From: Kiritimatiellia bacterium
GTDB taxonomy: Bacteria > Verrucomicrobiota > Kiritimatiellia > RFP12 > JBMNHG01
Direction: 5' to 3'
Length of the DNA stretch: 64,000 bases
NCBI GenBank assembly: GCA_050950285.1
Contig: JBMNHG010000003.1
Span: 186,001-250,000, forward strand
Shown here: positions 548 to 43,868 of the stretch, one piece after another
Numbering within the stretch: the first letter of the stretch is position 1
Layout of the letters: the number at the start of each line of letters is the position of its first letter
The notes under the pieces: model-generated
Database searches by the model: none
The model's input: the letters and a program-made list of their open reading frames with translations, nothing else
What the model was told of the DNA's origin: nothing
Position numbers and translations under genes: made by a program

Positions 548-550
548 GGA

Positions 551-760: not shown

Positions 761-832
761 GCCGCTATTGTGCCGCATGAGCGGGTATTTGGCAAGTGGC
801 CTGCGATTACTGCGGGTTGTTTTTGACAGGAT

Positions 833-1337: not shown

Positions 1338-1408
1338 CTTTCCCAACTCCACATTCCAGCTCCCAATGCCTGAATCTCCGCGCGCAGCGCGATTTGTAGC
1401 CGGGCTAG
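1338..1408 (+). repeat. Right half of the MITE found intact at 31114-31267
   Basis: CTTTCCCAACTCCACATTCCAGCTCCCAATGCCTGAATCTCCGCGCGCAGCGCGATTTGTAGCCGGGCTAG aligns without gaps to 31195-31265. Confidence 0.75.
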
Positions 1409-1624
1409 CAACGCCCTTTGGTTTCATCGCCCTTGCTATCGGGATCGGGCGATAACGCGAACAGGCGCCCAAAGGACGAAAGCATACGGGGACGACGGTC
1501 CCCATTTTTCGTCAGATTGATGTGCAAGGAAGGGTTGTGGTAAACTTCGGTTCGAAACGGCCCCCTGAAAGCCAGACATGTTGAACGGCTCACATAGACC
1601 GGAACACACCAGGAAGGGATTGCA

Positions 1625-3984: not shown

Positions 3985-4075
3985 GGGCGCAAACGTCAAA
4001 AGTCCGACTTGCGCAGTCCGGGCATAACTGGTAAGATTCGTTGCCGGTTAAGGCGAAAACCGGAAAGGGATATGC

Positions 4076-5389
4076 ATGGACAGACCTTTGCGCAGACTCT
4101 TGGCGGAACTGATCGCGGACTTCCAGGCCGCGCTGATCGAGGCCGGGTTCGACCGTGCCCTGCGCCTCCAGACCGCCCCCCGCAAGGCCGCCGTCTGCAT
4201 CGGCGTCCGCCGCTGCGGCAAAACCACCGTCCTTTTCCAGCACATCCGGCGTCTGCTCGACAGCGGCGTCCCGATGGAGAACATCGTCTACTTGAACTTC
4301 TTCGACGACCGGCTGCGGTCGCTGGACCGCGACACCCTCGACACGGTCGGCGAGGCGTATTTCGGGATGTTCCCGGAAAAGAAGGGCACGGAGAAGGTCT
4401 ATTTCTTCCTCGACGAGATTCAATGCGTTCCGGGATGGGAACCCTATGTGGACCGGTTGCTGCGGACCGAAAAATGCGAGGTCTTCCTCTCCGGCTCCTC
4501 CGCCAAGCTGCTGTCCACGGAAGTCGCCACCCAGATGCGGGGACGCTCGCTGTCGTGGGAACTCTTCCCGTTCTCCTTCGGCGAATTCGTCCGCGCGCGC
4601 GGCATGAACCCGGAGGGGCCGCCGACCTCCAAGCGCCGCCTGACGCTCGCCAAGCACTTCGATGCGTATTGGCGGACCGGAGGCTTCCCCGAGGTATTGG
4701 ACGCCACCGACAAGATCCGGGTGATGACACATCAGGAATACCTGAACGCGATCCTGTTCCGCGATGTGATCGAACGGCATAACGTCGCGCATCCCCGCGC
4801 CGTGGCGGATCTCGCCGCCTGGCTCATCGACAACACGGCCTCGACCTACTCGATCAACAGGCTGACCGGATACCTCTCCGCGCTGGGGCACCGGATACCC
4901 AAGAACACCGTCGGCGATCTTTTGGACTGGTTTGAGGACGCCTATTTCCTGTTCACCGTGCGGATCTTCGATGCCTCCCTTGCCCGATCCAATACGAATC
5001 CCAAGAAAATCTACTGCATCGACCATGCCCTGGTGCGCTCCACCTCCTCCGGCGTCTTGGTCAATGACGGGCATCTGCTTGAAAACATCGTTTTCCTCGC
5101 CTTGCGCCGTTCCGGGGCAAAAATCTACTACCACCGCACGAAGGGCGGGCGGGAGGTTGATTTTGCCGTGCCGGGCAAGAACGGCGTCGAACTGGTGCAA
5201 GTCTGCGAATCCCTGAAGGCGGCGGAGACCCGCGAACGCGAACTCCGCGCCTTGGGCGAAGCCATGCTCGAACTGGACGTGAAGGACGGGACGGTCGTCA
5301 CGCGCTCGGAGGAAGGGGTTGAACAGACCGACGCCGGCGAGATTTCGATTCGACCCGCCTGGCGCTGGTTGCTGTCGCGGGAAACATGA
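4076..5389 (+). CDS. AAA_14 / DUF4143 ATP-binding protein
   Basis: Walker A GVRRCGKT, Walker B FFLDEIQ, SGSS, GGFPE, PKKIYCID, C-terminal REVDF...LVQV. Confidence 0.9.
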   Translation: MDRPLRRLLAELIADFQAALIEAGFDRALRLQTAPRKAAVCIGVRRCGKTTVLFQHIRRLLDSGVPMENIVYLNFFDDRLRSLDRDTLDTVGEAYFGMFPEKKGTEKVYFFLDEIQCVPGWEPYVDRLLRTEKCEVFLSGSSAKLLSTEVATQMRGRSLSWELFPFSFGEFVRARGMNPEGPPTSKRRLTLAKHFDAYWRTGGFPEVLDATDKIRVMTHQEYLNAILFRDVIERHNVAHPRAVADLAAWLIDNTASTYSINRLTGYLSALGHRIPKNTVGDLLDWFEDAYFLFTVRIFDASLARSNTNPKKIYCIDHALVRSTSSGVLVNDGHLLENIVFLALRRSGAKIYYHRTKGGREVDFAVPGKNGVELVQVCESLKAAETRERELRALGEAMLELDVKDGTVVTRSEEGVEQTDAGEISIRPAWRWLLSRET

Positions 5390-5416
5390 CCAGCGTGGGC
5401 GTCCCCGCGGGATGGC

Positions 5417-5440
5417 CCGCCGGGGACGGCGGTCCCCAGT
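5417..5440 (-). repeat. REP-like palindrome (GGGGAC-cgcc-GTCCCC family)
   Basis: Reverse complement of CTGGGGACCGCCGTCCCCGGCGGG seen at 858-881 and 8644-8667; a variant lies at 1488-1504. Confidence 0.65.
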
Positions 5441-5570
5441 GAGCAGGTCGCCCGCGTTGCGTCAGAAAAAAGCGCGAAGCCTGGAGCCCGCAGTCTCTGC
5501 GGGGAAGGCTAAAGATCCCCTCGCCAGCGGATATCCGGATGGCTTCAACGGGCGCCCGCACTCGCTCGGT

Positions 5571-5628
5571 GGGCAATAATGATCAATCGTTGAGTAATAA
5601 TGCCCAGTCATTGAGTATTTTGTTGCCC
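5571..5628. promoter_or_regulatory. AT-rich imperfect inverted/direct repeat, putative operator upstream of the second ATPase
   Basis: GGGCAATAATGATCAA ... TTGAGTATTTTGTTGCCC, with TTGAGTA occurring twice. Confidence 0.4.
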
Positions 5629-5658
5629 GGGTGCGGTGCGCATGGTAAACTCCGGAGC

Positions 5659-6846
5659 ATGAATTACGAACGTCCTCTCGTTGATGTGCTGCGCAAGGCC
5701 CTGGACAAGAGGCCGGGGGTCATGCATGTGGTGGTCGGGCCGCGGCAGGTGGGCAAGACCACGGCGGTTCGGCAGGTGTGCGGACATCTCGACTATCCCA
5801 GCCACTGGGCCTCCGCCGATGCGCCCGTGCCGCCGGGCGCGGAGTGGATCGAGAGCCATTGGCGTCTGGCGGGAACAGATGCGGCCAGAAGCGGCAAGCC
5901 GGTTCTGCTGGTGCTGGACGAGATCCAGAAGGTCAGGGGCTGGAGCGAGACCGTCAAGCGGCTGTGGGACGAGACGCTGGCCACCGGCGTGCCGTTGCGC
6001 GTGGTGCTGCTTGGCTCGTCCGCCCTGCTGGTCCAGGCCGGCCTGACGGAGAGCCTGACGGGACGCTTCTTCCTGCACCGCTGCATGCACTGGGGGTGGC
6101 CGGAGTGCCGGACGGCCTTCGGGTGGGATCTGGACGACTGGCTCTACTTCGGCGGGTACCCCGGTGCCGCCGCCTTTGCCGACGACGAGCAGGCCTGGCG
6201 GCAGTATGTCTCGGACGCGATGGTCGAGACCGTCCTGTCGCGGGATGTCTTCCAGCTCGCGAACATCGCGAAGCCCGTGCTCATGCGCCACCTCTTCGGC
6301 CTGGCCGCGCAGTATCCCGCGCAGATCGTCTCCTATACCAAGCTGATGGGCCAGTTGCAGGACGCGGGCAACACCACCACGCTGGCCCACTACCTGCGCC
6401 TGCTCGAATCCGCCTTCCTCGTCTCGGGGCTGGAACAGTATTCCGTCGGACAGATCCGGAAACGCGGCAGCAGCCCCAAGCTGGTCTTCTGGAACAATGC
6501 CCTGATCCACGCCATGAGCGGACGGACCCGGCGCACCACGTTCGGGGACGGGGCGTGGATGGGACGGATCGTGGAGAATGCCATCGGCGCGCAGCTCCTG
6601 AACCGGCTCCAGGGGGCGGAGTGGTCGGTCGCCTACTGGCGCGATGGGAACAAGGAGGTGGATTTCGTGGTGCGGCGCGGGGCGCGGCTCTGGGGCATCG
6701 AGGTGAAGAGCGGCCGCCCGGGGAAGCTTTCGGGAATGGAGGCCTTCCGACGCCGTTACCCCAAGGCCGGGGCCTGGCTCATCGGCGCGGAGGGGATCGC
6801 GCTCGAAACCTTCTTCGCCCGCGACCCCGCAACCTTTTTCGAATAA
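5659..6846 (+). CDS. AAA_14 / DUF4143 ATP-binding protein
   Basis: GPRQVGKT, LVLDEIQ, LGSS, GGYP, SPKL, YWRDGNKEVDFVV...IEVKSG; start taken at MNYERP. Confidence 0.9.
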   Translation: MNYERPLVDVLRKALDKRPGVMHVVVGPRQVGKTTAVRQVCGHLDYPSHWASADAPVPPGAEWIESHWRLAGTDAARSGKPVLLVLDEIQKVRGWSETVKRLWDETLATGVPLRVVLLGSSALLVQAGLTESLTGRFFLHRCMHWGWPECRTAFGWDLDDWLYFGGYPGAAAFADDEQAWRQYVSDAMVETVLSRDVFQLANIAKPVLMRHLFGLAAQYPAQIVSYTKLMGQLQDAGNTTTLAHYLRLLESAFLVSGLEQYSVGQIRKRGSSPKLVFWNNALIHAMSGRTRRTTFGDGAWMGRIVENAIGAQLLNRLQGAEWSVAYWRDGNKEVDFVVRRGARLWGIEVKSGRPGKLSGMEAFRRRYPKAGAWLIGAEGIALETFFARDPATFFE

Positions 6847-7105
6847 AAAAAACCACCTAGCCGTACCTTGTTGCAGTGATAAACCTGCCATCCGCCACTC
6901 GGGTACCGGGTACCGGAACACGGGGCCGATTCGTTCGGCCGGAGAATGGAATACGATCTGCCGCCAGCACGCCAATCAATCATCCGGTTGCCGGGAACGG
7001 CCAAGTGGCAGCACGATGCCATGCCCTTCGAGACAAGGGAACCGCTCTTCCCAAGACTCGTACATGGGTGCAGCGTATTTGCCGTGTTGCAACTGCAACG
7101 ATGTA

Positions 7106-8461
7106 CTAGAGGATGATCGAACCGCCGGCCGCCAGCAGCTCGCGCGTTTCCGCGGCATCGACCTGGGGCATCGGGATGGCGTGCGTGAGCGCCTGGAAGG
7201 CGGCCACGCCGGCGGCCTCGCCGCACTGGTTCAGGTTGACCATGACCCGGATGGCGCCGAACGCCTCGCGGTCGACGCCGGCCATGCGGCCCGCGCAAAT
7301 CAGGTTTTGGGAGTTTTCGGGGATCAGGCAGCCCAGCGTGAACTGGTAGAAGGGGAGGCACTCGCCCTCCGGCAGCCAGCGCGAGGTGCTGACCGGCTTG
7401 TCGCCGCGGTAGGTGACGCACGAGCCGTCCAGGCGCTTGAAGGTGATGGCGGAGTCGCTGTCGCTGTGGATGTCGACCGGATAGGTGCCGTTGCCGATGG
7501 CGTCGGGGAAGCGGGTCCCCTGGAGCATGGCCTCCCCCGCGAGCAGGCGGAGCGGGACGATGTGCCGCCCTTCGCGGATGCCGATGGCGGAGGGCAGCGC
7601 CTGGAGCGTCAGGGTATTGCCGGGACGCGCGACGCGCAGCATGTCCATCAGGGCGCGGATCTGCCGGCGCGACGCGAACTCGGCCTGCGTGATGGCGTCG
7701 GCATCGTCGCAGTCGCAATGGAGGACGCGCGTGCCGGCCAGCATGTGGATCCGGCTGGAAGGGGTCCACATGCCCCAGCCGTAGCCGCAGGGAAGATCCG
7801 GGAAGCGGTCGCGGTACGCGTCGCACAGCTCCTGCAGCCGGAATTCGCCCAGGGAGTCCCAGTTCTCAAACCGCGCGCAGGCGGAGGGCGGCTGGGGGTG
7901 CGGCGGGCGGACCATCGCCATCCCCGCGTCGCGGCAGAGGACGCCGTCGCCGGAAGCGTCGACGAAGACCTTGGCCCGGATGGCGGAGCGCCCCGATTTG
8001 TTCTGGATGACGATGGCGGAGACAGCCCCGTCGTCGTCCTGCAGCACATGGGTGTAGGCGGTCTGGAACCACGTCCGGATGCGGGGTTGCCCGCAGACCA
8101 GGGCATCGAGCTCGAGCGTCAGCTCCTCGGTGTTGAAGCGGATGCCCTGCCCATTGCTGACGGCGGGGTCGCGGAATTCGGAGACCGCCTGGCGCTTCTC
8201 GAGCCGCTGCACCGTCTCGAAGGTGAGGCCGCCGATGATCTGCCGCCGCCCGGTGAAGTCGTGCAGCGAATGCCACATGCCGACCAGGCCGCAGGTGGCC
8301 ACGCCGCCGAAGCGGTTCTGCTTCTCGACCAGCGCCACGCGGGCGCCGAGGCGGGCCGCCCGCAAGGCGGCGAACACCCCCGTGCAACTTCCGCCGACGA
8401 CGCAGATGTCGGCCTCCATGGCCACGGGGACACGTTCGGCGGGGATGAGGATTTCGGACAT
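7106..8461 (-). CDS. FAD-dependent oxidoreductase (FAD_oxidored family)
   Basis: DICVVGGSCTGVFAALRAARLGARVALVEK...GGVAT, VFVDASGDG, GIREGR, NLICAGR, GEAAG. Confidence 0.88.
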   Translation of the reverse strand: MSEILIPAERVPVAMEADICVVGGSCTGVFAALRAARLGARVALVEKQNRFGGVATCGLVGMWHSLHDFTGRRQIIGGLTFETVQRLEKRQAVSEFRDPAVSNGQGIRFNTEELTLELDALVCGQPRIRTWFQTAYTHVLQDDDGAVSAIVIQNKSGRSAIRAKVFVDASGDGVLCRDAGMAMVRPPHPQPPSACARFENWDSLGEFRLQELCDAYRDRFPDLPCGYGWGMWTPSSRIHMLAGTRVLHCDCDDADAITQAEFASRRQIRALMDMLRVARPGNTLTLQALPSAIGIREGRHIVPLRLLAGEAMLQGTRFPDAIGNGTYPVDIHSDSDSAITFKRLDGSCVTYRGDKPVSTSRWLPEGECLPFYQFTLGCLIPENSQNLICAGRMAGVDREAFGAIRVMVNLNQCGEAAGVAAFQALTHAIPMPQVDAAETRELLAAGGSIIL

Positions 8462-8618
8462 GGCGGACTCCCGGCTGACGGTGGGCAGGAACCTCGATGC
8501 CGCCGCTCTCCCGAAGGATCGCAACGGCCTGGAAGGACGGCGGGTCGTGGCAGCAATCCATGCCGCCACACACAGTATCCCCCAATGCCACCGGTTTGTC
8601 TACCTTCCCTGACAACAC

Positions 8619-30872: not shown

Positions 30873-30979
30873 AACATCAACCATCCCGGAAGCCCTCCCG
30901 GGAAAACGAATTCCCATGCGCCTGCAGGTTGCAGGCGGACGCCTCCGACGCCGACGCTTTCCCCCGAATTTCAAGGCTG
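30873..30979 (+). repeat. 107-bp direct repeat copy 1 (probable solo IS end)
   Basis: Matches 33467-33573 with about 7 mismatches; contains CCCCGAATTTCAAGG near its end. Confidence 0.8.
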
Positions 30980-31113
30980 GCTTCGCGCTCTTCACGTCGC
31001 GCGAAAACGGGTCGAAGTCCTGTGCGGCATGTACAAGACCGGCATGCCGTTCAGCCTTCAAGCTGCGGGAGGCGTAACTTGTCGACAACCTCGCCATTTT
31101 GCGCTTTACTTGC

Positions 31114-31484: not shown

Positions 31485-32209
31485 ATGCGTTACCTGCTCA
31501 AATCGTGGCGATTCTGGCTGCTGCCCCTTGCCCTTGCAATGTTTTTACCGGTCAGAATGCGACGTTTGGCGTCAACACCACACCTTCCGGAATCACCCTT
31601 CCCGAGGGTCTTCTAACGTGGGGCGGTCTTGCATCGGGGACCGCACCAGAAGCGGACGTCACGTTCAACACCCCCAATTTTCTGGAGGTCGTTTCCGTTA
31701 CATGTGGAGGAAAGACAAAGACGGCTTTGGTTGCCATCAGAGATCAGCCATCTGGCATAGGCGAAACAGCCTATGCCTCGTTACATGCTGTTTATACAGC
31801 GATAGCTATGGCAAACAACCTTATTGGGACCGATGCAACAACGCTGGAACCATTTATTTGAGCAAATTCCACCTATCCTGGAATCCAACACAACACGGTT
31901 GCTGATGCTGCCCGCCATGCCTACTGGACGTGCTTACTCACCAGATACACCGTTGCAGGATACGCGGAAGGCCTGAGTACTCAACACGAAGTATCAAGCC
32001 CAGGCCCATCTACCGAGACGGTCATGGACCTTCACAACAACCTGATTGGCATTTCAATTGCGGGCGGACACACGCACACCTCCGGGCTGGCATGTTGTCG
32101 GTCCGCTGTTCAGGGCGCAGTTTCAGAAGGGGATCTGTGGTATCTCGATTCGTCCTACGAGGCCGTAAATACGGCAGAGGATGCGCTTCTCCAGTCCACC
32201 AACAAGTAA
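31485..32209 (+). pseudogene. Decayed secreted toxin gene with DUF6973-like C-terminal domain
   Basis: Signal-peptide-like start MRYLLKSWRFWLLPLALAM is out of frame with the body; in-frame TGA at 31859; continuation has DAARHAYW...QHE...MDLHNNLIG. Confidence 0.65.
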
Positions 32210-32223
32210 CGAGGGGCATCGGA

Positions 32224-32862
32224 ATGCGAACAGTGATTGCAGTTGGACTCATAATCCTTTGCGGCTCGAATATCCGGGCCGCAGATTCCGATCTGTTCCC
32301 GCTTCAAGGGCTGAGACTCGGAATGACGTCAAGCGATTTGCTGAAAGCTTATCCACATGCCAAAACGGCATTCGTCAAAAAAGACGGTGCAGGCCAATTG
32401 ACTGAAGGATTACTGCTCTGCGAGATAGCCAATAGTGCTTATTGGGACTCTGCTCTGATCAGGGTGCAGGAAGGGGAGGTGCAGTCGTGGTCTTACGTCC
32501 GCACAAAGGATTTTGACAGCGCAAGCAGAAGTGTGGGGGCGATCCATAAGGCACTCGTGGAGACTGTGGGCGGCACGTCCGAGAAGAAGGTAGCTTACCA
32601 TCTCTTGAAGCAAGGCAAAGTCCGGTCTCCCGTGTTTGTTTGGAAATTCGGCGATGTTCTTGCCGCGTTTACCCACAGTCCCGTTAAGGAACATCAATCC
32701 GGCGAGCCGTTCATCTGCCAACTCACGATTTTCCGCGATATCAAGGGTCTACAAAGCCTGTTTGATGTGGCTACAGATGAAAAGGACAAGGACTCCGAGT
32801 TGTTCTTGGAAGTAACGAGTGGAAGTGAAGTAACGAGTGGAGATGCGAACGCGGGCAAGTAA
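32224..32862 (+). CDS. Exported hypothetical protein, putative immunity protein
   Basis: GAGGGG RBS; signal peptide MRTVIAVGLIILCGSNIRA; low GC; directly follows the toxin remnant. Confidence 0.65.
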   Translation: MRTVIAVGLIILCGSNIRAADSDLFPLQGLRLGMTSSDLLKAYPHAKTAFVKKDGAGQLTEGLLLCEIANSAYWDSALIRVQEGEVQSWSYVRTKDFDSASRSVGAIHKALVETVGGTSEKKVAYHLLKQGKVRSPVFVWKFGDVLAAFTHSPVKEHQSGEPFICQLTIFRDIKGLQSLFDVATDEKDKDSELFLEVTSGSEVTSGDANAGK

Positions 32863-33205
32863 CACGATAGCAGCGATTATAGCTCTGGTCTTGGTCACCT
32901 GCGCCTTCTGGGTGTATTTGAATTGCCAAGGCCACTCTATTACGGTCGTAAATTCCGGGATGAAGCCAATCAGCGCTCTTGTAGTGACCGTTTGTGGCGC
33001 GGATTATTCGTTTCAGAATGTTCCCCCTGGCGGTCAGAGTCATCAGGCGTTTTTGATCACCGGAGATAGCGGCTTTCTTGTTCGAGGGCAATTTGAAGAT
33101 GGAGTTGCTATCCATGGTGGCTTTGGTTACGTCACCAAGAATGTCTCGCGACAGCATGTGGTAGTAGTTGTTCACGATAACGGGTCCGTGATCGGCAAGC
33201 AGTGA
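32843..33205 (+). CDS. Small membrane-anchored hypothetical protein, putative immunity protein
   Basis: N-terminal TM IAAIIALVLVTCAFWVYL then a beta-rich domain; low GC. Confidence 0.55.
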   Translation: MRTRASNTIAAIIALVLVTCAFWVYLNCQGHSITVVNSGMKPISALVVTVCGADYSFQNVPPGGQSHQAFLITGDSGFLVRGQFEDGVAIHGGFGYVTKNVSRQHVVVVVHDNGSVIGKQ

Positions 33206-33373
33206 TCTTCTTCCGGATCAGCGTCTGCTCTCGCAAGCTCGTGCCATCGCAACCGCTCCGCGTCCGCACACGGCATCTGTCCACGCACATGCCGCTCCAG
33301 TTTCTGGTCACCTCGCGTCAACCACGCCGCCTCCCAGCGAAACGCCGCCTTTTTCAGACGGGTAAGCTGCTGC

Positions 33374-33466
33374 GACGAGATGTTTTCCTCGAACATCGTC
33401 GTGGAGGTGCGGAACAACATCCTGGCAAGGGGCATACCGGAGCTGTCGTTCCCGATTGGATATACG
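33374..33466 (+). pseudogene. Fragment of a further hydrolase-toxin C-terminal variant
   Basis: [29 protein letters not shown] aligns with [27 protein letters not shown] and TMFTNTIPVAHRNELLAKAIPALSPSAG. Confidence 0.65.
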
Positions 33467-33573
33467 AACATCAACCATCCCGGAAGCCGTCCCGGGGAAA
33501 CGAATTTCCATGCGCCTGCAGGTCGCAGGCGGACGCCTCCGACGCCGGCGCTTTTCCCCGAATTTCAGGGCTG
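33467..33573 (+). repeat. 107-bp direct repeat copy 2
   Basis: See 30873-30979. Confidence 0.8.
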
Positions 33574-33656
33574 ACTTTTTTCCCCCCGCCCCGCATACTG
33601 TGTGTCGCCATGGGATCCGGCGGGTCGCCGGCCTGCCCCATGGGATGGCAGTGGAT

Positions 33657-36600
33657 ATGAACAAGCGCATCGCGATCGTCGCGGCGGCTCTTGTGCCGGT
33701 GGCGTCCCTGCAGGCGCAGGCGGGCTTCCCCTCTCCGGGATTTGCGGGCGAGCCGCACAACAAGACGGATCTGGCGCTGGCGTACGAACGGGGGCAGGCG
33801 TCGGGCGTCGGGCTGTTCTTCCCCGTGACGAACCGCGCCCTCACGGTGTGGGGCGGGACGGTCGACCGGACGGCGGCCGCCACGAACGGATTCGGCGCGG
33901 GGTTCCTGGACGGGCTCGCGGCGACGAATTTCGGCGGGGTCGAGATCTTCCCCGTCACGCTGCGCACGGACGACGCGAGCGGCGTCATCGGCTTCCACGA
34001 CGCGGGCGGCTCCCCGTTCGACGCGCTGCCGCCGCTGTCCGGCGCGGGCTACGCCCCGGACTGGATCGCGGAGCTGCACGGCGTGCCGGACGCGCCGACG
34101 AACGGCCTCTCCCAGTCCGCGCTGGACTTCACGCGCCTGCTGCTGCTGCCGTCGCACGTCGAGATGGAGTGGCATTTCGTCGACGCGACCAACCTCGGCG
34201 CCTACGCGGAGGCGCGGCGGAGCTTCTGGAACCCGCCGGGCGGAGGCGGGACGGGCGGGACGAACGGGCTGCGGTTCACGGGCATCCGGGTGGACTCCAA
34301 CGCCGTGCAGATCGCCCTGGCATGGCCGGAGAACCATCCGCTGCCGGGGAGCCGGCTGGACATCCTCTGCGCGCCGCGCCTCGACGCGACGAACGCGGCG
34401 GGCGGCGTCGCGTGGCATCCGCTGGCGCAGATCCCGGTCGAGCCGTCCGGGGGCTCCGCGTCCAACTCGATCCCCTTGAACCTGCTCCCGCCCGCGCAGC
34501 AGGCGGATCCCGACGGGCCGGCCGTCACGAACACGGCGGACTCCCTCTATGTCTCCGGCGTGGCCTACACCAACGTCGCCGCGCCGTTCGATGCGGAGGC
34601 GTCCGCCTCCGCGTTCTTCCGCGCCGCTTCGCTCGTCGACGCGGACGGCGACGGCCTTTCCGACGCGCTGGAGACCTGGGTCCATCTCACCGACCCCGAC
34701 GACGACGACACGGACGACGACGGCCGCCACGACGGCGCGGAGATCGCGCTGGGGCTGGATCCGCTCGACGGGAGCGACGGCCCCGACGCCGACCCCGACG
34801 GCGACGGGCTTCCGAACGCCCTGGAGGCCGCGCTGGGGACGGATCCGCGCGACGGCGACAGCGACGGCGACGGCCTCACGGACGGGGAGGAATACGGCCC
34901 GCCGTCGGTCGCGGCGACGGCCTTCCGGTGGTTCGACGCGTCGGGCGGGACGGATCTGACCGCGCGGTTCGCGTCCAACATGGACAATGGCTGCGCGGAG
35001 GGGGCGCTCCCGTTCCCGCTCTTCTTCGGAGGGCGGGCCCTGACCAGCCTGTCGGCCAACGCGAACGGGATCGCCGGGTTTTTCCCGGGCGCCGGGACGA
35101 TCGGCGCCGGGCGGTACGCCAATGGCGACATGGGCCGTGCGCACATGCCGTCCGGCTGCGGCCTGCTCGCCGCCGGGTTCTGGGACGACCTGTGCCTCTA
35201 TCCCGCGCTGGGTCCCGCCGTCACGCTGGCGGATGTCGCGACAAACGGCCACCGCCATTGCGTCGTCGAATACAAAAACGCGGGCTTCTATTCCGGCGGC
35301 GCGACCACGAACAACCTCGTCTCGTTCCAGCTGGTCTTCGAGGAGGGCGTCTCGAACCGCTTCCGCGTGTTCTACCGGGACGCCAACGGCCGCGGCGACG
35401 GGCGCTCGGCCACGCTGGGGGCGCGGACGGTCCCGCAGTCGCTCCAGTTTTCATGCGACACGGCGTCCGTCGCGGACGGCCTCGCGCTGGAATACCGCTT
35501 CGGGATCGGCACCGGCCCGCTCGACCCCGATACCGACGACGACGGGCTGGACGACGGCGCGGAGCTTGCCCTCGGCACCGACCCGTTTGGTTACGACACC
35601 GACGGCGACGGTCTTCGGGACGGCGAGGAGGCGGAGGCCGGCACCGACCCGCTCGACCCCGACACCGACGGCGACGGGCTGGGCGACTACTGGGAGTTCT
35701 GGAACATGCCGGAGTTCGACCCGCTCGACCCGTCCGACGGCCTCTCGGACTGCGACGGCGACGGCCTCTCCTTCGCGGAGGAATATCTCGGGACTCGCGG
35801 GCACGCCTCGAATCCCAACGACTGGGACACGGACGGCGACGGCCTCTCGGACGGCGCGGAGGCCGCGCTCGGGACCGATCCCTACCACCGCGATTCGGAC
35901 CGGGACGGGCTGGACGACCATGACGAGATTCCCGCCGGAACGAATCCGCTGAAGGCCGACACCGACAACGACGGCATGCCGGACGGGTGGGAGGCCGCGC
36001 ACGGCTTCGACCCGTCCGACCCGTCCGACGGCCCCGCCGACGCCGACGGAGACGGGCTGTCCAACAAAAACGAGCGTTATAAAGGCACCGACCCGCGCGA
36101 CCCCGACACCGACGGCGACGGGCGCACGGACGGCGCGGAGGTCGGCGGCTCCCCGACTTCCGACCCGCTGGACCCCGACACGGACGGCGACGGGCTGAAC
36201 GACGGCGAGGAGATCGCGCGCGGGACCAATCCCCGGAAACAAGACACGGACGGCGACGGCATGAAGGACGGGTGGGAGGACGTGCATGGCTTCGACCCGC
36301 TCGACGCCGCCGACCCCGACCCCGGCGCCGACCCCGACGGCGACCACATCCCCAACCTGCGCGAGGCCGCGCTGGGCACCTCCCCGCACTTGGCGGACAC
36401 CGACGGCGACGGCCTCGGCGACCACGGGGAAGCGGGGTGGATCGGCGCGGGGCTGCCGCCGCTGGCCGTCCCCGGCGGCACGAACGTCCTCGCGCTGATG
36501 GGCGACCCCGACTCCGGCCAGGCCGTCCTGCCGCTGCCCTTCCCGGTCGAGATCCAGGGCTCCGCCTGCTCCAACGTCTGCGTCGGGATCGACGGCTTCG

Positions 36601-39566
36601 TCGAACTGGGCCGGTCGGCCGCAGGCGGACGCCTTTCGGACAGCGTCCTGCGACTGGATGCCTTCCGCGACAACCTGAAGGCCTATCCCGCCGGGCTCGG
36701 CTCATCGGTCACGCTCGCGGACATCGCGACCAACGGCGCGCGGTACTGCGTCGTTGAATACAAAAACATGGGGTTCCATTCCGGCGGCGCGACCACGAAC
36801 CACCTCGTCTCGTTCCAGGTCGTCTTCCAGGAGGGCGTCCCGGATCGCGCCGACGTCGTCTTCCCCGCCGCCGCCGGGCGCGGCGACGGGCGCAACGCAC
36901 GGCTGGAGGCCCGAGCCCCGTACACCACGCTCGCCTATTCCAGGCACCAGCCCGCCGTCTCCCCCGGCCTCTCCATCGCCTACCATTTCGGCACCGGCAC
37001 CGACCCGCTCCGCGCCGACAGCGACGCCGACGGGATCGGCGACGCCGACGAGATTGCCGCCGGGCTCGACCCTCTCGCCTCGGACACCGACGGCGACGGC
37101 CTCTCCGACGCCTTCGAGCTCGCCAGCGGCATGAGCCCGTTCGTCCACAACGACACCGACGGCATCGCCGGCAACGGCGCGGACGAAGACCCCGACGGCG
37201 ACGGGCTGGCGAATTCCGAAGAATACCTGAACGGCACCGACCCCTTCAACCCCGACAGCGACGGCGACGGCGTCCCGGACGGCGACGAGATCGGCCAGGG
37301 CTCCGACCCGCTCGACGACTTGGACAGCCAGCCCCGCGAGGTCGTCCCCTTCACGATCCTCTTCGGCGACGAGAGCGGCAGCCACTCCGAAAAATACCGC
37401 CTGACGGTCACTCCGGTATCCGGCGACACCCGCCCCGGCTGGACGCTGGTGAACCGCGCGTTCGGCCAGCCCGACCCGCTCACCGTCAGGCTTGCCGCCG
37501 GGGCGACCTACGAGGTCGCGCTCGGGCACGCCGCCACCGACCCCGACTACGACGGCGCCCCCCGCCCCGACTACGACTACACGCTCGAGTTCTCCCCGGA
37601 CGCCTCCGCGCCCGGCATGGCCGTCCTCGCCGACGACCCCGACGGCATCCTCGGCTTCCATGACGAGAGCGACACCTTCTACGCCGCCGGGAAGACCGCC
37701 CGGCTCACCGTCGTCCGCGCCGGCCTCGTCCCCGACTACAACCGCGACCGGACGATCTCCTCCGCCGAAGCGTCCGGGGCCACCTTCCGCCTCTGGCTCA
37801 ACGACGACGCGGACGAGGGCGATGTCGCGGAAGGTGGAAGCGACCTCCCCGGCCAGTTCTCCGGCTGGCTGGCCAAGGCCAACTTCGGGGACAGGCGCGT
37901 CAACGGCCGCGCCGACCTGCCGGACTTCTTCCCCGTGTGGCTGGACATCGGCGAAGCCCTCGCCCACCTCGACGCGACGCCCGGCGGCGAGATCGAGGTC
38001 AGGCTGAGCCAGAAAAACACTGCGCTCGCCTATGTCCCGACCGCGCTCTCCACCAACGACGCCGGCGCCTTCCTCGTTTCGGACGTCGCGGGCCTCGCCT
38101 CCGCCGCCACGCGCAAGATCACCAACGCCGGCGTGGCGATCCCCGGTTCCTTCGTCGATGCCGTCCGCGCCGACCCGTCCAAGGGCGTCATCCTCGTCGA
38201 GGGCCGCGCGGCGACCTCCGAGCCCCTCGTCGCCGAGATCTGGCGCAATGGCAGGAAGATCGTCAGGATGGAGCTCCCCCTGCGCGTCACGCCCGTGGAG
38301 CAGATGTACACCCGCGTCAACCTGCGCAACGGCGCCGCCGTCGTGACGCCGGGCTCCGTCTTCCTGCCTGCCAGCGGCAAGAATGTTGTCTTTGTGCACG
38401 GCTTCAACGTGACCGAGGACGAGGCTCGTGGCTGGCACAGCGAGATGTTCAAGCGCCTGTGGCAGTCCGGCTCCAACGCCCGCTTCCATGCGGTGACGTG
38501 GAAGGGTGACATCGGATGGCCCAATGCCCTTCACTACCACGAGGATGTGGCCAGTGCCTTCCAGACCGCGCCGCACCTCAAGAATTACGTCAATGGCTTG
38601 TCCGGCGGGAAAATCATGATGGCCCAGAGCCTCGGCAACCTGGTCGTCTCCTCGGCCATCGCCGACCACGGCATGGGCGTGGACAAGTTTTTCATGTTCC
38701 ACGCCGCCGTCGCAGCGGAGGCGTTCGACATGTCGCAATGGAACACCGACGCAATGTATCAGGTAATGGTGCCCGGCGAATGGTATCCTTACCCGTCGTC
38801 AAGCTGGAGTGCGAAATGGCATGGGCACTTTCTGTTCGCCGGGCATCCGAATGACGACCGTGGATACCTGACGTGGAAGAACCGCCTCTTGTCCGTATCA
38901 TCCGCGACCACTCTCTACAACTATTATTCGTCCGGGGATGAGGTCCTCGAACTGTTTTCCGAGGCACCCGACAACAACGAGGGAATGGTGCCCTCTGACA
39001 CGTTGACATGGGGACGCTACGCATGGCACAAACAGGAGACGCACAAGGGGTGCGGCGCTCTCGACCCGTCCGGCACCTCGTGGGCGGGGTGGGGGTTTGC
39101 CGACCCGCCCCGTATGCGCGTGTTCAGCGGCACGGGGCCGACGGGAAACATCCTCTACGATTACGTTCCCAATACGGCCACGAACAAAGCCGCCATGCTG
39201 GCCTATCTGGCGGGAGACCCTATCCTACCACTGGACTTCTTCGAGGAGAACGTGATTTTTAAAGACAATCCGCCTGAAATCTTCCTGCCGGAAATCCCGG
39301 CGGACACGCGGAACGAAATCCTCGCCAAAGGCATTCCCGCACTGTCTGGTCCGACAGGAAGGCAAAGTGTCGGTATCAGGGATGGGGCCGGCAATTTGCT
39401 TCCTGGCAGAAACATCGACATGAATGAGGTTGAACGTCCCAATGGTTGGGGACGGACGAATCAACATTTTGTACAACGCTGGTTGCATGGTGATTTGAAA
39501 GCCATGGCGTTCTTCTATAACTTTAAGCTCTATGAAGATGTGGTTTCCAAAGGAGGCTTGAAATGA
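33657..39566 (+). CDS. 1969-aa secreted protein: signal peptide, thrombospondin type-3-like DxDxDG repeats, duplicated beta-domain, C-terminal alpha/beta-hydrolase (DUF900/lipase-like); putative polymorphic toxin
   Basis: [22 protein letters not shown]; many DTDGDGLxDGxE repeats; VVFVHGFNV oxyanion motif, AQSLG nucleophile elbow, [15 protein letters not shown] drops in the last ~800 bp. Confidence 0.85.
39033..39100 (+). repeat. Cassette junction repeat copy 1 (QETHKG..LDP.GT.WAG.GF)
   Basis: CAGGAGACGCACAAGGGG... recurs at 40756 and 43083. Confidence 0.85.
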
Positions 39567-40738
39567 AAAGGAAAATGTATGTGTTTGCCGCGCTGTTGAC
39601 CATAGCGCTTGTTGGCCTCTTCATTCGGAGACCTGAAAAGCAAGGAACAGACGCCCCCAAACACAAGCAACACGATTCGCCGGAACAATCTTCCCCGATT
39701 GCGCTCGTTGAGGCAGATAATGCGGAGTCAAGCGGGACAGGCCGCGGAAAAATGCCTCTTCCCGGTCGCAGAGTGTACAAGCCGACAAGTCTTCAGGTCG
39801 GGCAGGGAGGGGCGACGGTAATCGAGATTGACCACGGGTTAAGATTGGTGGACAGGTTCAAGGGGGAACGCTATTCGGATGATGTTGAAAATGGGAAAAG
39901 AAAAGGCGCAATGGGAGCCATCACGTTACGAGTGGTTGACTCGACAGGAGTTCCGGTCGAGGGTGCGGAACTGTTCGGCGGTTTCTGGACTAACAATCCC
40001 GATGATACGCCCGTGACAGGTATAAGTGACGAAAACGGGAATATATCAGTAGAACATCTCTGTACTGGAGACTTTAACTTTTCGATCACTAAGAATGGCT
40101 ATTACAGGACAACGTTGAGATATTGGTTTTTCAAGACGGGGTTTGATTGTGCCAAGGACGGACGCTGGCTGCCGTGGAATCCCACTGTGGAAGTCACGCT
40201 AAAAGAGAAGCGGAATCCAATTTCGATGGCTGGCGTGAACCGCCTGCTGTTTGCGTTCCCGATACGCCAAAAGGCGGGTTTTGATTTCGAGATTGGAGAT
40301 TTGGTTGAACCGTTTGGCAACGGGAAGACTCCCGATATTTCATTCTGGTATGATTCATGGCAAGACATTACCCCGTACTGTTATTCCAATCGTTTTGTTG
40401 TGGCGGTTGAGGATGGCGGAGCTATAGCAACAATGCGCAAGGATTCATTCAGCGATTTCAAGTTCGCCTATGCGCCGCCGGATTCAGGGTGGGTCTCCGG
40501 CTTAGCACTCGGCATGGTCCGAACAGAGGACCAGATATTGAGTAATGTCGCTCTCGCCAAAGAGGAATACTGGGTGATTGCCGTGCGGAGAGGAGAGATA
40601 AAGCGGTTTGCAGTGGTCAGCGATTTTGAGTTCGGCGGCTCTGAGCGTGGGACTAATTTCTGCGGTGTGCTACTATCGTATTATCTGAATCCGAACGCGG
40701 GAGATACCAACCTTGAGATCAAGGGACATTATCCGTGA
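39563..40738 (+). CDS. Membrane-anchored carboxypeptidase-regulatory-like domain protein; putative immunity protein 1
   Basis: ATGA overlap with the toxin; N-terminal [38 protein letters not shown]-terminal [13 protein letters not shown]; low GC. Confidence 0.75.
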
Positions 40739-41232
40739 TGAAGTACCGTCAGAAGCAGGAGACGCACAAGGGGCGCGGCGGCCTCGACCCGGCCGGCACC
40801 TCATGGGCCGGCTGGGGTTTCGCGGAACATGCGGAACTGGTAAATATGTATCCGCCATCCTATGTGATGATCCGCGACTACACACTCGCGGAAGCCAACT
40901 CCGCCACCCCCGGCCAGTTGCGCGACAGTCCCGTCTTCCGCCACGACCCTTCCACCATGTTCACCAACACGATCCCCGTCGCGCACCGCAACGAGCTGCT
41001 GGCGAAGGCAATCCCCGCGCTCTCACCCTCGGCAGGGGGAGTTATGCTCCCGCAACTTACGAGTTCTAGGAATTTCGACATGAACACCGACTTCAAGCCT
41101 GATGGCGGAGTGTGGGGGCGGGATCATGGCGACTACGGCAAGCGCTGGCTGCATAACGACATGAGGGAGATGGCCTTCTTCTATACACACAAGCTCTTCA
41201 AGCATCTGGTCGTGCAGGGGGATTTGCAATGA
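40735..41232 (+). CDS. Orphan alternative C-terminal tip of the hydrolase toxin
   Basis: Begins [24 protein letters not shown] and contains RNELLAKAIPALS, NFDMN and RWLHNDMREMAFFY; collinear with the last ~175 aa of 33657-39566 but divergent. Confidence 0.8.
   Translation: MMKYRQKQETHKGRGGLDPAGTSWAGWGFAEHAELVNMYPPSYVMIRDYTLAEANSATPGQLRDSPVFRHDPSTMFTNTIPVAHRNELLAKAIPALSPSAGGVMLPQLTSSRNFDMNTDFKPDGGVWGRDHGDYGKRWLHNDMREMAFFYTHKLFKHLVVQGDLQ
40756..40823 (+). repeat. Cassette junction repeat copy 2
   Basis: Similar to 39033-39100. Confidence 0.85.
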
Positions 41233-42437
41233 GAAATACCAGACTTGTTCTAGTTCTTGCCGTTGCCGTCTGCGCCGTCATCATTGCCGTGCTGCTGCTG
41301 CGCCGTGATGACCGTGGAATACGGCACCCGACAAGCGGTGCTGGCGGCACTTCTAATGTGGTACAATCAGCCGCGGTCGTCGCGCACCACGTCGAAGGAG
41401 CACCCGAATGGGAAGATGCGTCGGCAGAGCGAGTTGCAACGCGCTTGGCAACACAGATAAGCGATAGCGAACTGGTCCGCCTTGAACCGGGGCACCCCAA
41501 ACCCGCGCATATCACCAGGGCACAGGAGGAGGGTGCGCGGGCCAGAATCACCTTCCTTGTGGTTGACGACCGTGGGCGTCCGGTTCCGGATGCCACGGTC
41601 GCCGGCGGGTTCTACAACCACGGGCGGGGCGACCACAGCTTCTCGCGCCAGACGCGGAGCGACGGGACGGTCGAGCTTGAGGATCTCTGTGTATGGGAGA
41701 TAAACTACCATGTCGAGAAGCCAGGCTATTATGAGACGCGGGATCGCTATGATTTCTACAAGATTGGGTTCGACTGCGTTAAAAACGGACGCTGGATACC
41801 CTGGAACCCGACAGTCGAGGTTGTTCTCAAACGCAAGATTAATCCGATCGCAATGTATGTTCGCCGAGGCAAGCTCAACAGAGTGGCGCTACCGAAACTC
41901 GACGATTGGACTGGGTTTGATTTGGAGTGTTCTGACTGGCTTCAACCGTATGGCAATGGCAAACGTGAAGATTTTCAGGTGTTTTTCCGGCGTGGAGAAA
42001 CGAATCACATGGGGGTGTTTAATCAGTTTTCACTGTCGTTCCGATTTTGCAAGCCTTTTGACGGGGCATACCTGTCTCATAAAGACAATACAGGCAGCCA
42101 ACTTCAATGCGTCTATGAGGCTGACACAAACCGTCTCTACGATACTAAAATGGAGTTTTCTTATGAAAGATTGACTGATCTGGCGAATGGTCGTGTTGTA
42201 GTCAACAACAAATTGCTGGGGGAAGAGGAGTATTTGGTGCTAAGGGTCAGGAGCGAGTCGGATGCTGATGGCAGACTAATTAAGGCAAACTATGCAAAAA
42301 TCTGTCCGCCGCTATTTGCGGCTTTTTATGGATTCCAGATGACGACCTACTTCAATCCCAACGAAAATGACCCGAATCTTGAGGCCGACACGAGTAGGAA
42401 CCTTCTCAATCCTAGCGACCTGGGTTTTGCACCATGA
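41229..42437 (+). CDS. Paralogous membrane-anchored putative immunity protein 2
   Basis: ATGA overlap with the orphan tip; TM anchor; [47 protein letters not shown]. Confidence 0.75.
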   Translation: MRNTRLVLVLAVAVCAVIIAVLLLRRDDRGIRHPTSGAGGTSNVVQSAAVVAHHVEGAPEWEDASAERVATRLATQISDSELVRLEPGHPKPAHITRAQEEGARARITFLVVDDRGRPVPDATVAGGFYNHGRGDHSFSRQTRSDGTVELEDLCVWEINYHVEKPGYYETRDRYDFYKIGFDCVKNGRWIPWNPTVEVVLKRKINPIAMYVRRGKLNRVALPKLDDWTGFDLECSDWLQPYGNGKREDFQVFFRRGETNHMGVFNQFSLSFRFCKPFDGAYLSHKDNTGSQLQCVYEADTNRLYDTKMEFSYERLTDLANGRVVVNNKLLGEEEYLVLRVRSESDADGRLIKANYAKICPPLFAAFYGFQMTTYFNPNENDPNLEADTSRNLLNPSDLGFAP

Positions 42438-42460
42438 TGCAGCGCTTCAGCAATGAGCCC

Positions 42461-42541
42461 CACAACGACATGAGGAAGATGGCCTTCTTCTATAACTTCA
42501 AGCTCTATGAAGATGTGGTTTCCAAAGGAGGCTTGAAATGA
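42461..42541 (+). pseudogene. Chimeric extreme C-terminal toxin remnant
   Basis: HNDMRKMAFFY (orphan-type) followed by [15 protein letters not shown] (identical to the main toxin end). Confidence 0.8.
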
Positions 42542-43065
42542 AAAGGAAAATGTATGTGTTTGCCGCGCTGTTGACCATAGCGCTTGTTGGCCTCTTCATT
42601 CGGAGACCTGAAAAGCAAGGAACAGACGCCCCCAAACACAAGCAGCACGATTCACCGGAACAATCTTCCCGGATTGCGCTCGTTGAGGCAGATAATGCGG
42701 AGTCAAACGGGACAGGCCGCGAAAAAATGCCTCTTCCCGGTCGCAGAGTGTGCAAGCCGACAAGTCTTCAGGTCGGGCAGGGGGGGCGACGGTAATCGAG
42801 ATTGACCACGGGTTAAGATTGGTAGACAGGTTTAAAGGGGAGCGCTATTCGGATGATGTTGAAAAGGGGAAAAGACAAGGCGCAATGGGAGCCATCACGT
42901 TACGAGTGGTTGACACGACAGGAACTCCGGTTGAGGGGGCGGAACTGTTCGGCGGTTTCTGGACTAATAATCCCGATGATACGCCCGTGACAGGTATAAG
43001 TGACGAATTACCTGAACCCGAATCCGGATGATACTAACCTTGAGATCAAGGGACGTTATCCCTGA
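42538..43065 (+). pseudogene. Duplicated immunity-1 gene with a 1-bp frameshift and ~650-bp internal deletion
   Basis: Near-identical to 39563-40033 and then to 40681-40738; GGGAGGGG collapsed to G7 near 42780. Confidence 0.88.
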
Positions 43066-43232
43066 TGAAGCACCGCCAGAAGCAGGAGACGCACAAGGGG
43101 TGCGGCGCTCTCGACCCGTACGGCACCACATGGGCGGGCCGGGGGTTCTGGGAGCGGGCCTTGCCGCTTGTGGGCAACGTCTACAGCAAGAACGCCGCCT
43201 TCCTGCACGACTCGGGAATCGCGCGCGTATAG
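43065..43232 (+). pseudogene. Third, truncated orphan toxin tip (contains junction repeat copy 3 at 43083-43148)
   Basis: [28 protein letters not shown] then diverges (WERALPLVGNVYSKNAAF...). Confidence 0.75.
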
Positions 43233-43280
43233 CAACAGGGGACAGACATGCATTCCATCTGCAACGATGGAGGTTCATCT

Positions 43281-43868
43281 ATGAACGCCAAGATATCCAA
43301 TCCGCTGATACTCCGCTGTATTTTGGGGTTGATCTTCACCCTTGTGTTCTATGCGATGGCGATTTCCATTGCGGGGGGGGGTGATATACTTGGCTTTGAC
43401 AGGTGCCGTGAATGAAATACGAACGACAGGAAGCCTCCATCTCTCCTGGATATTGCTTGTCATTGCGGCGCTTCGTTGATCTCTCATCCTTGGGAAAGCC
43501 AGAAATTCCAGTGCGGCGATTCTCCCGTTCAACCCCTATTGTTTCTATTGCAATGGGCTTGTGGCGAGTTTGCGCAAGAGCAATGGGACACGGTGTGTTC
43601 CTGGAAGAACCTTGGAGATGTCGAGATTGGCGGAGCCCTCCAACAAGCATGTGAACAGGTCATCAAGGATGCGCAAGACAGGGCGCTTGCAGAAGCGGAC
43701 AGGAGTCATCCGGAAGCCGACAAGCGATCAACGGTCATTCTGCGGCCGGCGAACGGGGAAAAAACGATCGTTACCTGTAGATGCGGGTGCAAGATGAGGG
43801 TTTTGCGTCGCGGCAAAATGCGTAGCGTTCGGTGCCCCAAGTGTCGTACCCTGGTTTCACTTCCATGA
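43281..43868 (+). pseudogene. Degraded low-GC membrane-protein gene with C-terminal Zn-ribbon
   Basis: GGAGG RBS, MNAKISNPLILRCILGLIFTLVFYAMAISIAGG broken at a G9 run (43373-43381); a distal frame ends CRCG...CPKC. Confidence 0.4.

Follow-up and report, generated by a model that had tools for sequence, protein, structure and literature searches.

Whether an enzyme domain can be exchanged piecewise, at points lying within its catalytic fold, is the question raised by a 64,000-nucleotide stretch of contig JBMNHG010000003.1 from a Kiritimatiellia bacterium (assembly GCA_050950285.1, positions 186,001 to 250,000; hereafter the window). Its giant main gene ends in an alpha/beta-hydrolase domain and is followed by a partner gene and by 5'-truncated pieces of the same hydrolase (orphan tips), the first of which precedes a second partner gene. 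A preliminary description of the locus had proposed that a short junction present in three copies allows recombination to swap only the C-terminal tip of the hydrolase, thereby changing immunity specificity while the chemistry is kept. We consider it probable that the locus represents a polymorphic toxin/immunity-type system, in which homologous variants recombine at conserved motifs within the fold, leaving 3' orphans of graded length behind.

The plus strand contains exact matches to the 18-mer CAGGAGACGCACAAGGGG at 39033, 40756 and 43083, the only three in the window; across 100 dinucleotide-shuffled sequences the mean is 0.09 matches, and a count of three is never attained. A repeat search extended the 18-mer to an island of 77 nucleotides (nt) with 84–86% identity between copies (65/77, 66/77 and 66/77 in pairwise comparison; Table 1). 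Over the 77 nt 3' of the island, ungapped pairwise identity amounts to 19/77, 31/77 and 17/77, so that three copies with differing sequence behind each are present as initially described. Over the 77 nt 5' of it, the main gene matches each orphan at chance level (18/77 and 17/77), and orphans 1 and 3 share 62/77, because both adjoin the 3' end of a partner gene. A 150-nt linker, 85% identical at 40677–40826 and 43004–43153, consists of the C-terminal motif of the partner (YY(L/F)NP..D.NLE) plus the junction and could, judging from its sequence, serve as a second homology arm.

At the protein level, the island encodes residues W259, E263, K266, G267, G280 and W281 of the hydrolase domain (P0004), all invariant in an alignment of 65 family members. 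Where the main tip and orphan tip 1 carry identical residues, the same codon is used at 10 of 11 positions within residues 259–274, compared with 18 of 56 over the remainder of the tip (Fisher p 0.0004). This bias toward codon identity points to gene conversion or crossover in the 5' half of the island. The longest exact match between the main gene and orphan 3 measures 37 nt.

We then asked where the junction falls in the hydrolase fold. The landmarks of P0004 are HG at residues 50–51, the nucleophile Ser127 (AQSLG, 38622–38636), Asp230 (YSSGD, 38925–38939) and His413 (WLHGD, 39480–39494), with Ser, Asp and His in canonical order. Counted by motif starts, the junction (residue 259) lies downstream of AQSLG (125) and YSSGD (226) and upstream of WLHxD (411), the order given by the preliminary description. 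Apart from the junction residues, the invariant positions of the 65-member alignment are H50, G51, S127, G129, G370 and H413; Asp415 is conserved to at least 90% and Asp230 to at least 80%. An AlphaFold2 model computed from this alignment (predicted local distance difference test, pLDDT, 88.9; predicted template modeling score, pTM, 0.90) forms one compact domain with strands at 44–49, 78–83, 120–126, 146–150 and 221–226 before the junction, a core strand at 388–390 and a final helix at 421–435 after it; residues 287–309, directly behind the junction, are the sole poorly defined part. Strand order is that of canonical alpha/beta hydrolases, with the nucleophile elbow after beta5. Structural alignment with VIA-align yielded Z scores of 11.6–14.7 to about 50 alpha/beta hydrolases, with the aligned core spread across model residues 41 to 436; the best example is a minimal lipase of 172 residues (6nkc_B, Z 14.7, 162 residues aligned, root mean square deviation (rmsd) 2.6). 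Foldseek against the PDB returned weak, partial alpha/beta-hydrolase matches only (best E 2.5e-4, 136 columns), and a profile search aligned HGF...AHSLGN with the oxyanion/nucleophile region (GHSLG) of pancreatic lipase-related proteins (E 0.005). A single-sequence search of solved structures with P0004 gave no match at E ≤ 1, and NCBIfam and PADLOC held no family for P0004, P0001, P0002 or P0003.

The model thus describes P0004 as a single-domain alpha/beta hydrolase, predicted to be a lipase-like serine hydrolase. Because strand beta8, the His loop and the last core helix all come from the tip, the tip is not an independent domain, and the junction was correctly placed inside the enzyme fold. 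The tip also bears the invariant His413, as the preliminary description had expected of the catalytic His, and topology and invariance argue for its catalytic role. PMC11878206 describes the active site of DUF900 proteins as buried beneath an additional helix that follows strand beta7; in the model, the junction helix (258–264) fits this description.

Further loci of the same genome show how such domains vary among paralogs. A whole-genome search with P0004 identified a second array on the same contig (C3:666367-678000), ordered as a 2607-residue main gene, a partner, a 447-residue orphan (a near-whole hydrolase from about residue 53), a partner and an orphan tip; another main gene, the third, lies on contig C11. 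Among the main genes, a 5' region of ~4.8 kb is 96–99% identical, and the hydrolase domains only 41–45%. In blastn comparison, identity of the window's main gene to the C11 copy extends as far as 38309 and that to the second C3 copy as far as 38480, and the three paralogs diverge at hydrolase residues ~21, ~27 and ~78. Judged from these alignments, this divergence amounts to nearly whole-domain replacement, close to the Rhs/CdiA type. In the C11 gene, ~106 diverged nt are followed by a 686-nt stretch with 99.3% identity to orphan 2-1 of the second array, an identity that stops at the junction. The two orphans of that array, 2-1 and 2-2, are 0.92–0.95 identical from the junction to residue 366 and 0.54 beyond. 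Breakpoints at ~21–78, 259–283, ~366 and ~410–420 thus all occur within one genome. On C11 (258318-264155, minus strand) we also observed, ~23 nt past the junction, a 39-nt match (97% identity) to C3:675290-675328, where orphan 2-1 (C3:675290-676011) has its 5' edge; the order of pieces on C11 is thus permuted relative to C3, as if via a circle or a tandem duplicate.

Relatives of P0004 are numerous, with 1984 at E ≤ 0.001 and 716 at E ≤ 1e-30 among 1.84 billion cluster representatives. The best 150 of the 1984 range from 277 to 3407 residues in protein length; in 132 the match begins no later than residue 60 and extends at least to residue 425, and in 13 it falls short of 425. Pfam analysis of 20 relatives revealed TSP3 repeats in 16, along with RCC1, beta-helix, Chlam_PMP, LamG and MAM modules. 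In the host's order, 20 of the 41 genomes searched (the host's own included) contain a match; the sole genome of the same genus (92% complete) gave none. Scanning one genome per species yielded 79 loci, mostly titled as metagenome-assembled genomes (MAGs) of Kiritimatiellia, Lentisphaerae and Verrucomicrobia. All stop-to-stop open reading frames of these loci and of the own genome were then searched with hidden Markov models (HMMs) in P0004 numbering. Full-domain matches reach the protein end within a few residues in all but 1 of 116 cases, and 68 of 70 full-length hydrolases have a partner homolog within 300 nt downstream; many loci carry two to five tandem partner genes.

In addition, 32 hydrolase fragments were counted, of which two are located at the end of a locus and a few are the second part of a frameshifted gene; 26 of the 32 stand directly behind a partner gene. 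Their first HMM position ranges from 35 to 413 (53 to 413 without the two at locus ends). Five start at 240–273 (window orphan 1, orphan 2-2 and those of loci L092, L051 and L035), or six with window orphan 3, so that three orphans of this genome, and orphans in three others, begin at the junction point. Eight start at 383–413 (binomial p 0.002, with events not all independent). Two features of polymorphic toxins are therewith present, namely a constant N-terminal part with a variable C-terminal domain, located C-terminally in proteins of very different length, and orphan cassettes (window tips 1 and 3 with partner 2, the two orphans of the second C3 locus, and the 32 fragments). The closest outside relative, at 59% identity, is found in locus L029 (Kiritimatiellia MAG, 93-8599), where a main hydrolase is followed by a partner, a whole-domain orphan (open reading frame of 544 residues), a partner and a tip end of 30 residues. 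This orphan is 0.84–0.95 identical to its own main gene up to residue 160 and 0.29–0.59 beyond, the shared arm being the first block and not the junction.

To locate breakpoints in intact genes, a single change point was fitted to every pair, out of 80 full-domain genes, with at least 55% identity in either core or tip. In all, 98 pairs were flagged, which are non-independent but stem from at least 10 different locus pairs. Breakpoints map to residues 40–79 in 46 pairs, mostly within the variable lead-in to the domain, to 140–179 in 33, to 360–379 in 11 and to ~237 in one; the strongest among intact genes of other genomes lie at ~141–163 and 366–377. Expressed as the fraction identical over residues 41–160, 161–258, 259–285, 286–366 and 367–438, L072 and L079 score 0.97, 0.44, 0.63, 0.52 and 0.48 (partner 0.33), L094 and L106 score 0.97, 1.00, 1.00, 0.98 and 0.53 (partner 0.46–0.52), and L061 and L065 score 0.96, 0.98, 1.00, 0.96 and 0.52 (partner 0.44–0.52). 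The best full-length relative of orphan tip 1, P0156 (683 residues, 73% identical to the tip), is itself a composite by this measure: it is 0.83 identical to orphan tip 1 over 367–438, and 0.79 identical to the main gene over 41–160 and 0.48 over 161–258. By their sequences, such intact mosaics show that crossovers within the fold can yield surviving genes.

The same segments were compared with partner divergence. Partner identity is best predicted by residues 367–438, with a standardized coefficient of 0.37 vs 0.17, 0.22, 0.01 and 0.10 for the other segments (3160 pairs), and in 180 close pairs it correlates with the last block at r 0.77. Partial correlations are 0.36 between partner and tip given the core, and 0.24 between partner and core given the tip. 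An immunity-binding surface, which the preliminary description had located in the tip, may lie there; the co-divergence of partner and last 70 residues is a lead and not proof of such a surface, because kinship or DNA linkage could yield the same pattern.

Metagenomes offered a second view of the locus. At least 13 runs (digester, bioreactor or landfill metagenomes) contain half or more of the sampled words of 38300–42400, and RNA-labeled runs contain only small shares of the locus. Contigs of runs X1, X13, X14 and X15 were compared with 38000–42440, some bins being without cover in X13 and X14; positions 42441–43400 repeat 530 nt of partner 1 and were left out, hence joints to orphan 3 are outside the scope of this comparison. 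The contigs reproduce the window's own arrangement, the third, decayed copy included. A 647-nt skip (40032 to 40680) and a 2937-nt backward joint were considered as rearrangements and rejected, since both simply trace the decayed third copy of the window itself. Another organism's contigs, at high depth in X13 and X15, cover 40909–41366 and 41459–41673, with 39 mismatches and 12 gaps in 458 nt. They combine an orphan-1-like tip with partner-2-like sequence; the sequence before 40750 differs from the 3' end of partner 1 and in frame ends ...RYTW, which is the family consensus before KQE. One X13 contig additionally matches 53 nt at 38659–38711. These contigs may represent a full-length gene elsewhere that bears an orphan-1-like tip.

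Several of these results weigh against exchange at the junction, and they bring in another explanation, by which the orphans are decaying leftovers of tandem duplication or displacement, the island is kept for its active-site helix and no exchange takes place today. The junction motif is invariant family-wide at the protein level, and protein function largely explains its conservation. Orphan 3, the tip-end remnant and the second copy of partner 1 are all broken, and orphan 3 is only one of several decayed pieces. Orphan 5' ends are scattered over positions 53–413, and just 1 of the 98 flagged pairs of intact genes, from other genomes, breaks near residue 280. In the contigs of the four runs compared with 38000–42440, we found no deletion joint between main gene and orphan (39033–39103 to 40750–40826), the chimeric junction that tip exchange as initially described would create; this is weak evidence, because contigs drop rare variants. 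Further points limit the case for a toxin system with exchange inside the fold: exact identity between the main gene and orphan 1 extends over only 18 nt, which is little for RecA-type recombination, and the homology arm to the single intact orphan is short; the enrichment of orphan starts at 240–273 is modest (6/33, binomial p 0.04, with events not all independent); the C11 paralog stops 44 codons past the junction and lacks a partner gene; and the position of His413 next to Ser127 is predicted from topology and invariance.

The leftover explanation nevertheless sits poorly with orphan tip 1, which begins 4 codons ahead of KQETHKG, runs unbroken to WLHND...GDLQ and keeps every conserved tip motif. 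Nor does it account well for the codon identity at residues 259–274 compared with the rest of the tip, for the C11/orphan 2-1 homology that stops exactly at the junction, for the independent orphans in L051, L092 and L035 that begin at 250–273, or for intact natural mosaics with other intra-fold breakpoints, which represent surviving crossover genes. We regard decay without exchange as rather unlikely. What the breakpoints do not bear out is the idea of the junction as the one special exchange point, since paralogs diverge upstream of it, other genomes break mainly elsewhere and a single flagged pair breaks nearby. The contrast drawn at the outset with Rhs/CdiA was likewise overstated, as the same-genome paralogs show near whole-domain replacement at ~21–78.

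The mechanism that we favor, exchange at several conserved motifs, would then operate as follows. A giant, presumably Sec-exported TSP3-repeat protein carries the C-terminal lipase-like alpha/beta hydrolase, which would be translationally coupled to an exported beta-sandwich partner. Since all variants of the putative toxin domain are homologous, new ones could arise via homologous crossover inside the hydrolase fold, and not only ahead of it. Active-site motifs would act as islands of nucleotide identity, and 3' parts that are displaced would persist downstream as orphans accompanied by their own partners. One such island would be the three-copy junction, the motif used at the window locus, which encodes the conserved helix after beta7. 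Crossover between the main copy and an orphan copy would delete the intervening tip and partner, the product being a main gene fused to the orphan tip (beta8, catalytic His and last helix) and to the orphan's partner. The anatomy, the single-domain fold, the pairing of hydrolase and partner across the family, the orphan arrays and the mosaics are seen in the sequences and the model; toxicity, immunity, a delivery route and continued crossover are what we infer from this arrangement. Two negative results count against such a system: no delivery apparatus was identified, with no type VI secretion system (T6SS) sheath gene VipB/TssC (PF05943) in the 99.35%-complete genome, and Pfam detected no RHS/YD, FHA, VENN, CdiA or other trafficking domain in the main protein.

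A more specific version of exchange at several motifs can be put forward tentatively, its parts taken jointly. The domain may consist of about four exchangeable blocks (~1–160, 161–258, 259–366, and 367–438 plus the partner gene), with the active-site motifs AAVAxEAxD, WxKQExxKG..GWGF and LAxGIPALS as separators and crossover sites, so that one fold would be shuffled piecewise in an exon-like manner. Each orphan array would on this view store 3' blocks in a range of lengths, and the last block, with beta8, the His loop and the C-terminal helix, would confer partner specificity. It would be a bolder step, and a less likely one, to suppose that orphan tips translated on their own could supply what a tip-less copy such as the C11 gene lacks, the two acting together as a split enzyme.

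The main protein starts with a Sec-type signal peptide, as judged by eye, and matches TSP3_bac in 12 stretches in Pfam (E 8.7e-62), with a sub-threshold match to DUF900 (PF05990) at the C-terminus (15.6 bits for the hydrolase domain vs the gathering cut-off of 20.5); at E ≤ 0.1, Pfam returned nothing else for the 1969-residue protein, and no Tle family. G+C content drops from ~0.72 in the main-gene body to 0.61 early in the hydrolase and 0.46–0.60 in the cassettes (0.46–0.61 overall). Partner 1 was modeled as an N-terminal membrane helix, a disordered linker and an all-beta remainder made up of a transthyretin-like domain (116–217, Z 9.3 to 5aq0_B) and an HmuY-like beta domain (220–385, Z 11.5 to 8b6a_B). 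Nearly all partner proteins begin with a signal or lipoprotein-like peptide, and they share the conserved C-terminal motif given above. No match to a known immunity family was obtained for the partners in Pfam, NCBIfam or PADLOC, and Pfam did not find Imm-SUKH, Imm66 or Imm69. Complex prediction of the hydrolase with residues 100–391 of partner 1 gave ipSAE values of 0.00 and 0.01 (mark 0.32) and, being made without controls, is uninformative on binding either way. The exported two-domain beta-sandwich protein would be a periplasmic immunity protein. Lipase-specific foldases (Lif) are membrane-anchored, mostly helical periplasmic proteins; a foldase role of the partner was considered and rejected, the modeled partner being all-beta after its N-terminal helix.

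These proteins might alternatively be secreted or surface esterases and lipases used for feeding or surface remodeling, with the partner as an anchor, a folding or export aid or a regulator and the arrays as a product of paralog turnover. Such a role would suit the Sec signal and adhesin-like repeats (TSP3 here; RCC1, beta-helix and LamG in relatives), the carbohydrate-binding-like and HmuY-like folds of the partner and its failure to match known immunity families. It is harder to reconcile with a constant N-terminus joined to a variable C-terminal enzyme, an exported partner coupled to it in 68 of 70 cases, spare tandem partners, 5'-cut fragments and the drop in G+C, or with an all-beta partner unlike the helical lipase foldases. 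We hold this alternative to be improbable.

Table 1 Features of the hydrolase locus, in window coordinates.
Feature	Position	Strand	Remarks
Tip relic, 96 nt	33373..33468	+	just 5' of main gene; 92% identical to tips of second C3 locus
Constant region	33527..38480	+	96–97% nt identity to two paralogous genes of the genome (blastn of three loci)
Main gene, 1969 residues	33657..39566	+	from ATG at 33657; open reading frame and translation; signal, TSP3 repeats, C-terminal alpha/beta hydrolase
Hydrolase domain P0004, 438 residues	38250..39563	+	C-terminus of main gene
Junction copy 1	39027..39103	+	inside main gene; hydrolase residues 260–285, WHKQETHKG...GWGF
Partner 1, 391 residues	39563..40738	+	start overlaps main-gene stop (ATGA)
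Orphan tip 1, 165 residues, intact	40735..41232	+	ATG overlaps partner 1 stop (TGATG)
Junction copy 2	40750..40826	+	5' end of orphan tip 1
Partner 2, 402 residues	41229..42437	+	34% identity to partner 1; ATG overlaps orphan tip 1 stop
Tip-end remnant, ~35 codons	42437..42541	+	repeat family and HMM match to positions 413–438
Decayed partner 1 copy	42538..43064	+	repeat families; frameshift and internal deletion
Orphan tip 3	43065..43232	+	ends after 55 codons; contains junction copy 3
Junction copy 3	43077..43153	+	within orphan tip 3

In the tip-end remnant, the first part is tip 1-like and the last part identical to the end of the main tip. The 5' 470 nt of the decayed partner 1 copy are 94–97% identical to 39563–40033 and frameshifted, and an internal deletion fuses them to the last ~60 nt of a partner gene. 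The hydrolase ends GGLK and GDLQ encode Shine-Dalgarno-like sequences (GGAGG/GGGGGA) 7 nt before the partner ATG (39540–39566, 41205–41232 and 42515–42541), and the short tip ends before spare partners of many loci, as in the eight fragments that start at HMM 383–413, may have been kept because they encode the partner's ribosome-binding site.

A direct repeat of 111 nt (93% identity between 30873–30983 and 33467–33577) flanks a 2.5-kb segment of low G+C (0.50–0.57) that adjoins the main gene on its 5' side. The segment has the tip relic at its right end and contains reading frames of 310 residues with a signal-like start (31930–32862) and of 122 residues with a membrane helix (32837–33205). 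It could have originated as an earlier cassette array that has since decayed, or by insertion into a duplicated leader. Within the main gene, a 223-nt repeat (78% identical, 35203–35425 and 36691–36913) reflects a duplicated module of ~500 residues between TSP3 blocks. A module conserved in family members lies ahead of the hydrolase at ~37500–38250 (P0005 residues ~1290–1530), with motifs WLNDDxDxG, DxPG and VNGxxDLxDFFP followed by PLxL...VExMYRxxNLR; it had no Pfam match and no usable match in the ESM Atlas (P0005 residues 1270–1550), and could serve in release or targeting. Elsewhere in the assembly, contigs C9 (5854 nt, 34% G+C) and C12 (18291 nt, 58%) depart from the 63–67% G+C of the rest and could stem from a foreign element, a plasmid or a binning error.

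If the favored mechanism is true, these genes constitute a large unnamed toxin/partner family of the PVC (Planctomycetes, Verrucomicrobia and Chlamydiae) superphylum, here Kiritimatiellia, Lentisphaerae and Verrucomicrobia; the family comprises ~2000 clusters at 50% identity and includes digester, rumen and gut bacteria. Toxin diversification would in this case be unlike textbook domain swapping, the chemistry being kept while the partner-linked part changes. It raises the question which segment of an enzyme toxin decides immunity recognition, for which the natural chimeras mark residues 367–438 as candidates. The family would also form a natural data set on the cut points tolerated by the alpha/beta-hydrolase fold, of relevance to protein engineering.

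Among known systems, Rhs and CdiA toxins have a constant N-terminal delivery region, a variable C-terminal toxin, an immunity gene directly downstream and 5'-cut orphans with their own immunity genes, and a short stretch common to main gene and orphans lets recombination switch the expressed toxin. The window locus shares with them the constant N-terminus, the variable C-terminus, the downstream partner, the 5'-cut orphans and the shared short stretch. It differs in a main protein without RHS/YD, FHA or VENN elements (Pfam), and in orphans that are homologous pieces of one fold with various cuts, whereas Rhs and CdiA join unrelated domains at one preceding motif. Passages of PMC5361080 cite the Salmonella Rhs orphan switch of Koskiniemi et al. 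and describe, for T6SS modules of Vibrio cholerae, how incoming effector-immunity modules displace older immunity genes, sometimes together with a partial 3' effector, downstream, so that arrays of spare immunity genes result from homologous recombination without fixed sites. Here, in contrast, the effector starts with a Sec signal, a search of the genome for a T6SS sheath gene was negative, partial effectors are common and intra-fold breakpoints are shared.

T6SS lipase effectors Tle1-4 pair with periplasmic Tli immunity proteins, and the likeness to the window locus lies in an alpha/beta-hydrolase lipase-type protein with an exported partner of 300–400 residues. The Tle3/Tli3 structure 8boz aligns with the model through its Tle3 chain 8boz_A (Z 12.6, 224 residues aligned, rmsd 4.2), which does not stand above the ~50 other alpha/beta hydrolases. 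The two further differ in that the main protein has no Tle match in Pfam at E ≤ 0.1 and the genome no T6SS in a search for PF05943.

The polymorphic toxins defined in passages of PMC4436062 and of Zhang et al. 2012 (PMC3482391) are secreted multi-domain proteins with a constant N-terminus, a variable C-terminal toxin, a downstream immunity gene, orphan cassettes and cognate neutralization; the latter passages also place Tox-ABhydrolase-1/2/3 at the C-termini of such toxins, some of them in Verrucomicrobia. Compared by description only, the Tox-ABhydrolase-2 signature of HSxG, D and H resembles AHSLG, D and H of the window family. The immunity families listed there, Imm-SUKH, Imm66 and Imm69, were not found by Pfam in our partners, and TSP3 carriers are absent from those passages. 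A secreted bactericidal phospholipase of a haloarchaeon, cinquedea, is another point of comparison, 69% of its homologs carrying DUF900 according to its description (bioRxiv 10.64898/2026.06.10.730825). DUF900 is the nearest Pfam family of the window hydrolase, which at 15.6 bits stays below the cut-off that relatives pass (P0018 and P0028 at 27.9 bits, P0111 at 26.7). By that description, cinquedea differs in being a single-gene unit without a partner gene.

A literature search, with subscription journals outside its coverage, returned no description of this hydrolase/partner family or of exchange within a toxin domain. Already known are thus the orphan logic of Rhs/CdiA and the displacement logic of V. 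cholerae, alpha/beta-hydrolase toxins, and a DUF900-type bactericidal phospholipase. What appears to set the Kiritimatiellia locus apart is the combination of a TSP3 carrier with a Sec signal, an unnamed partner family, and a single catalytic fold that would be exchanged piecewise at several recurrent breakpoints.

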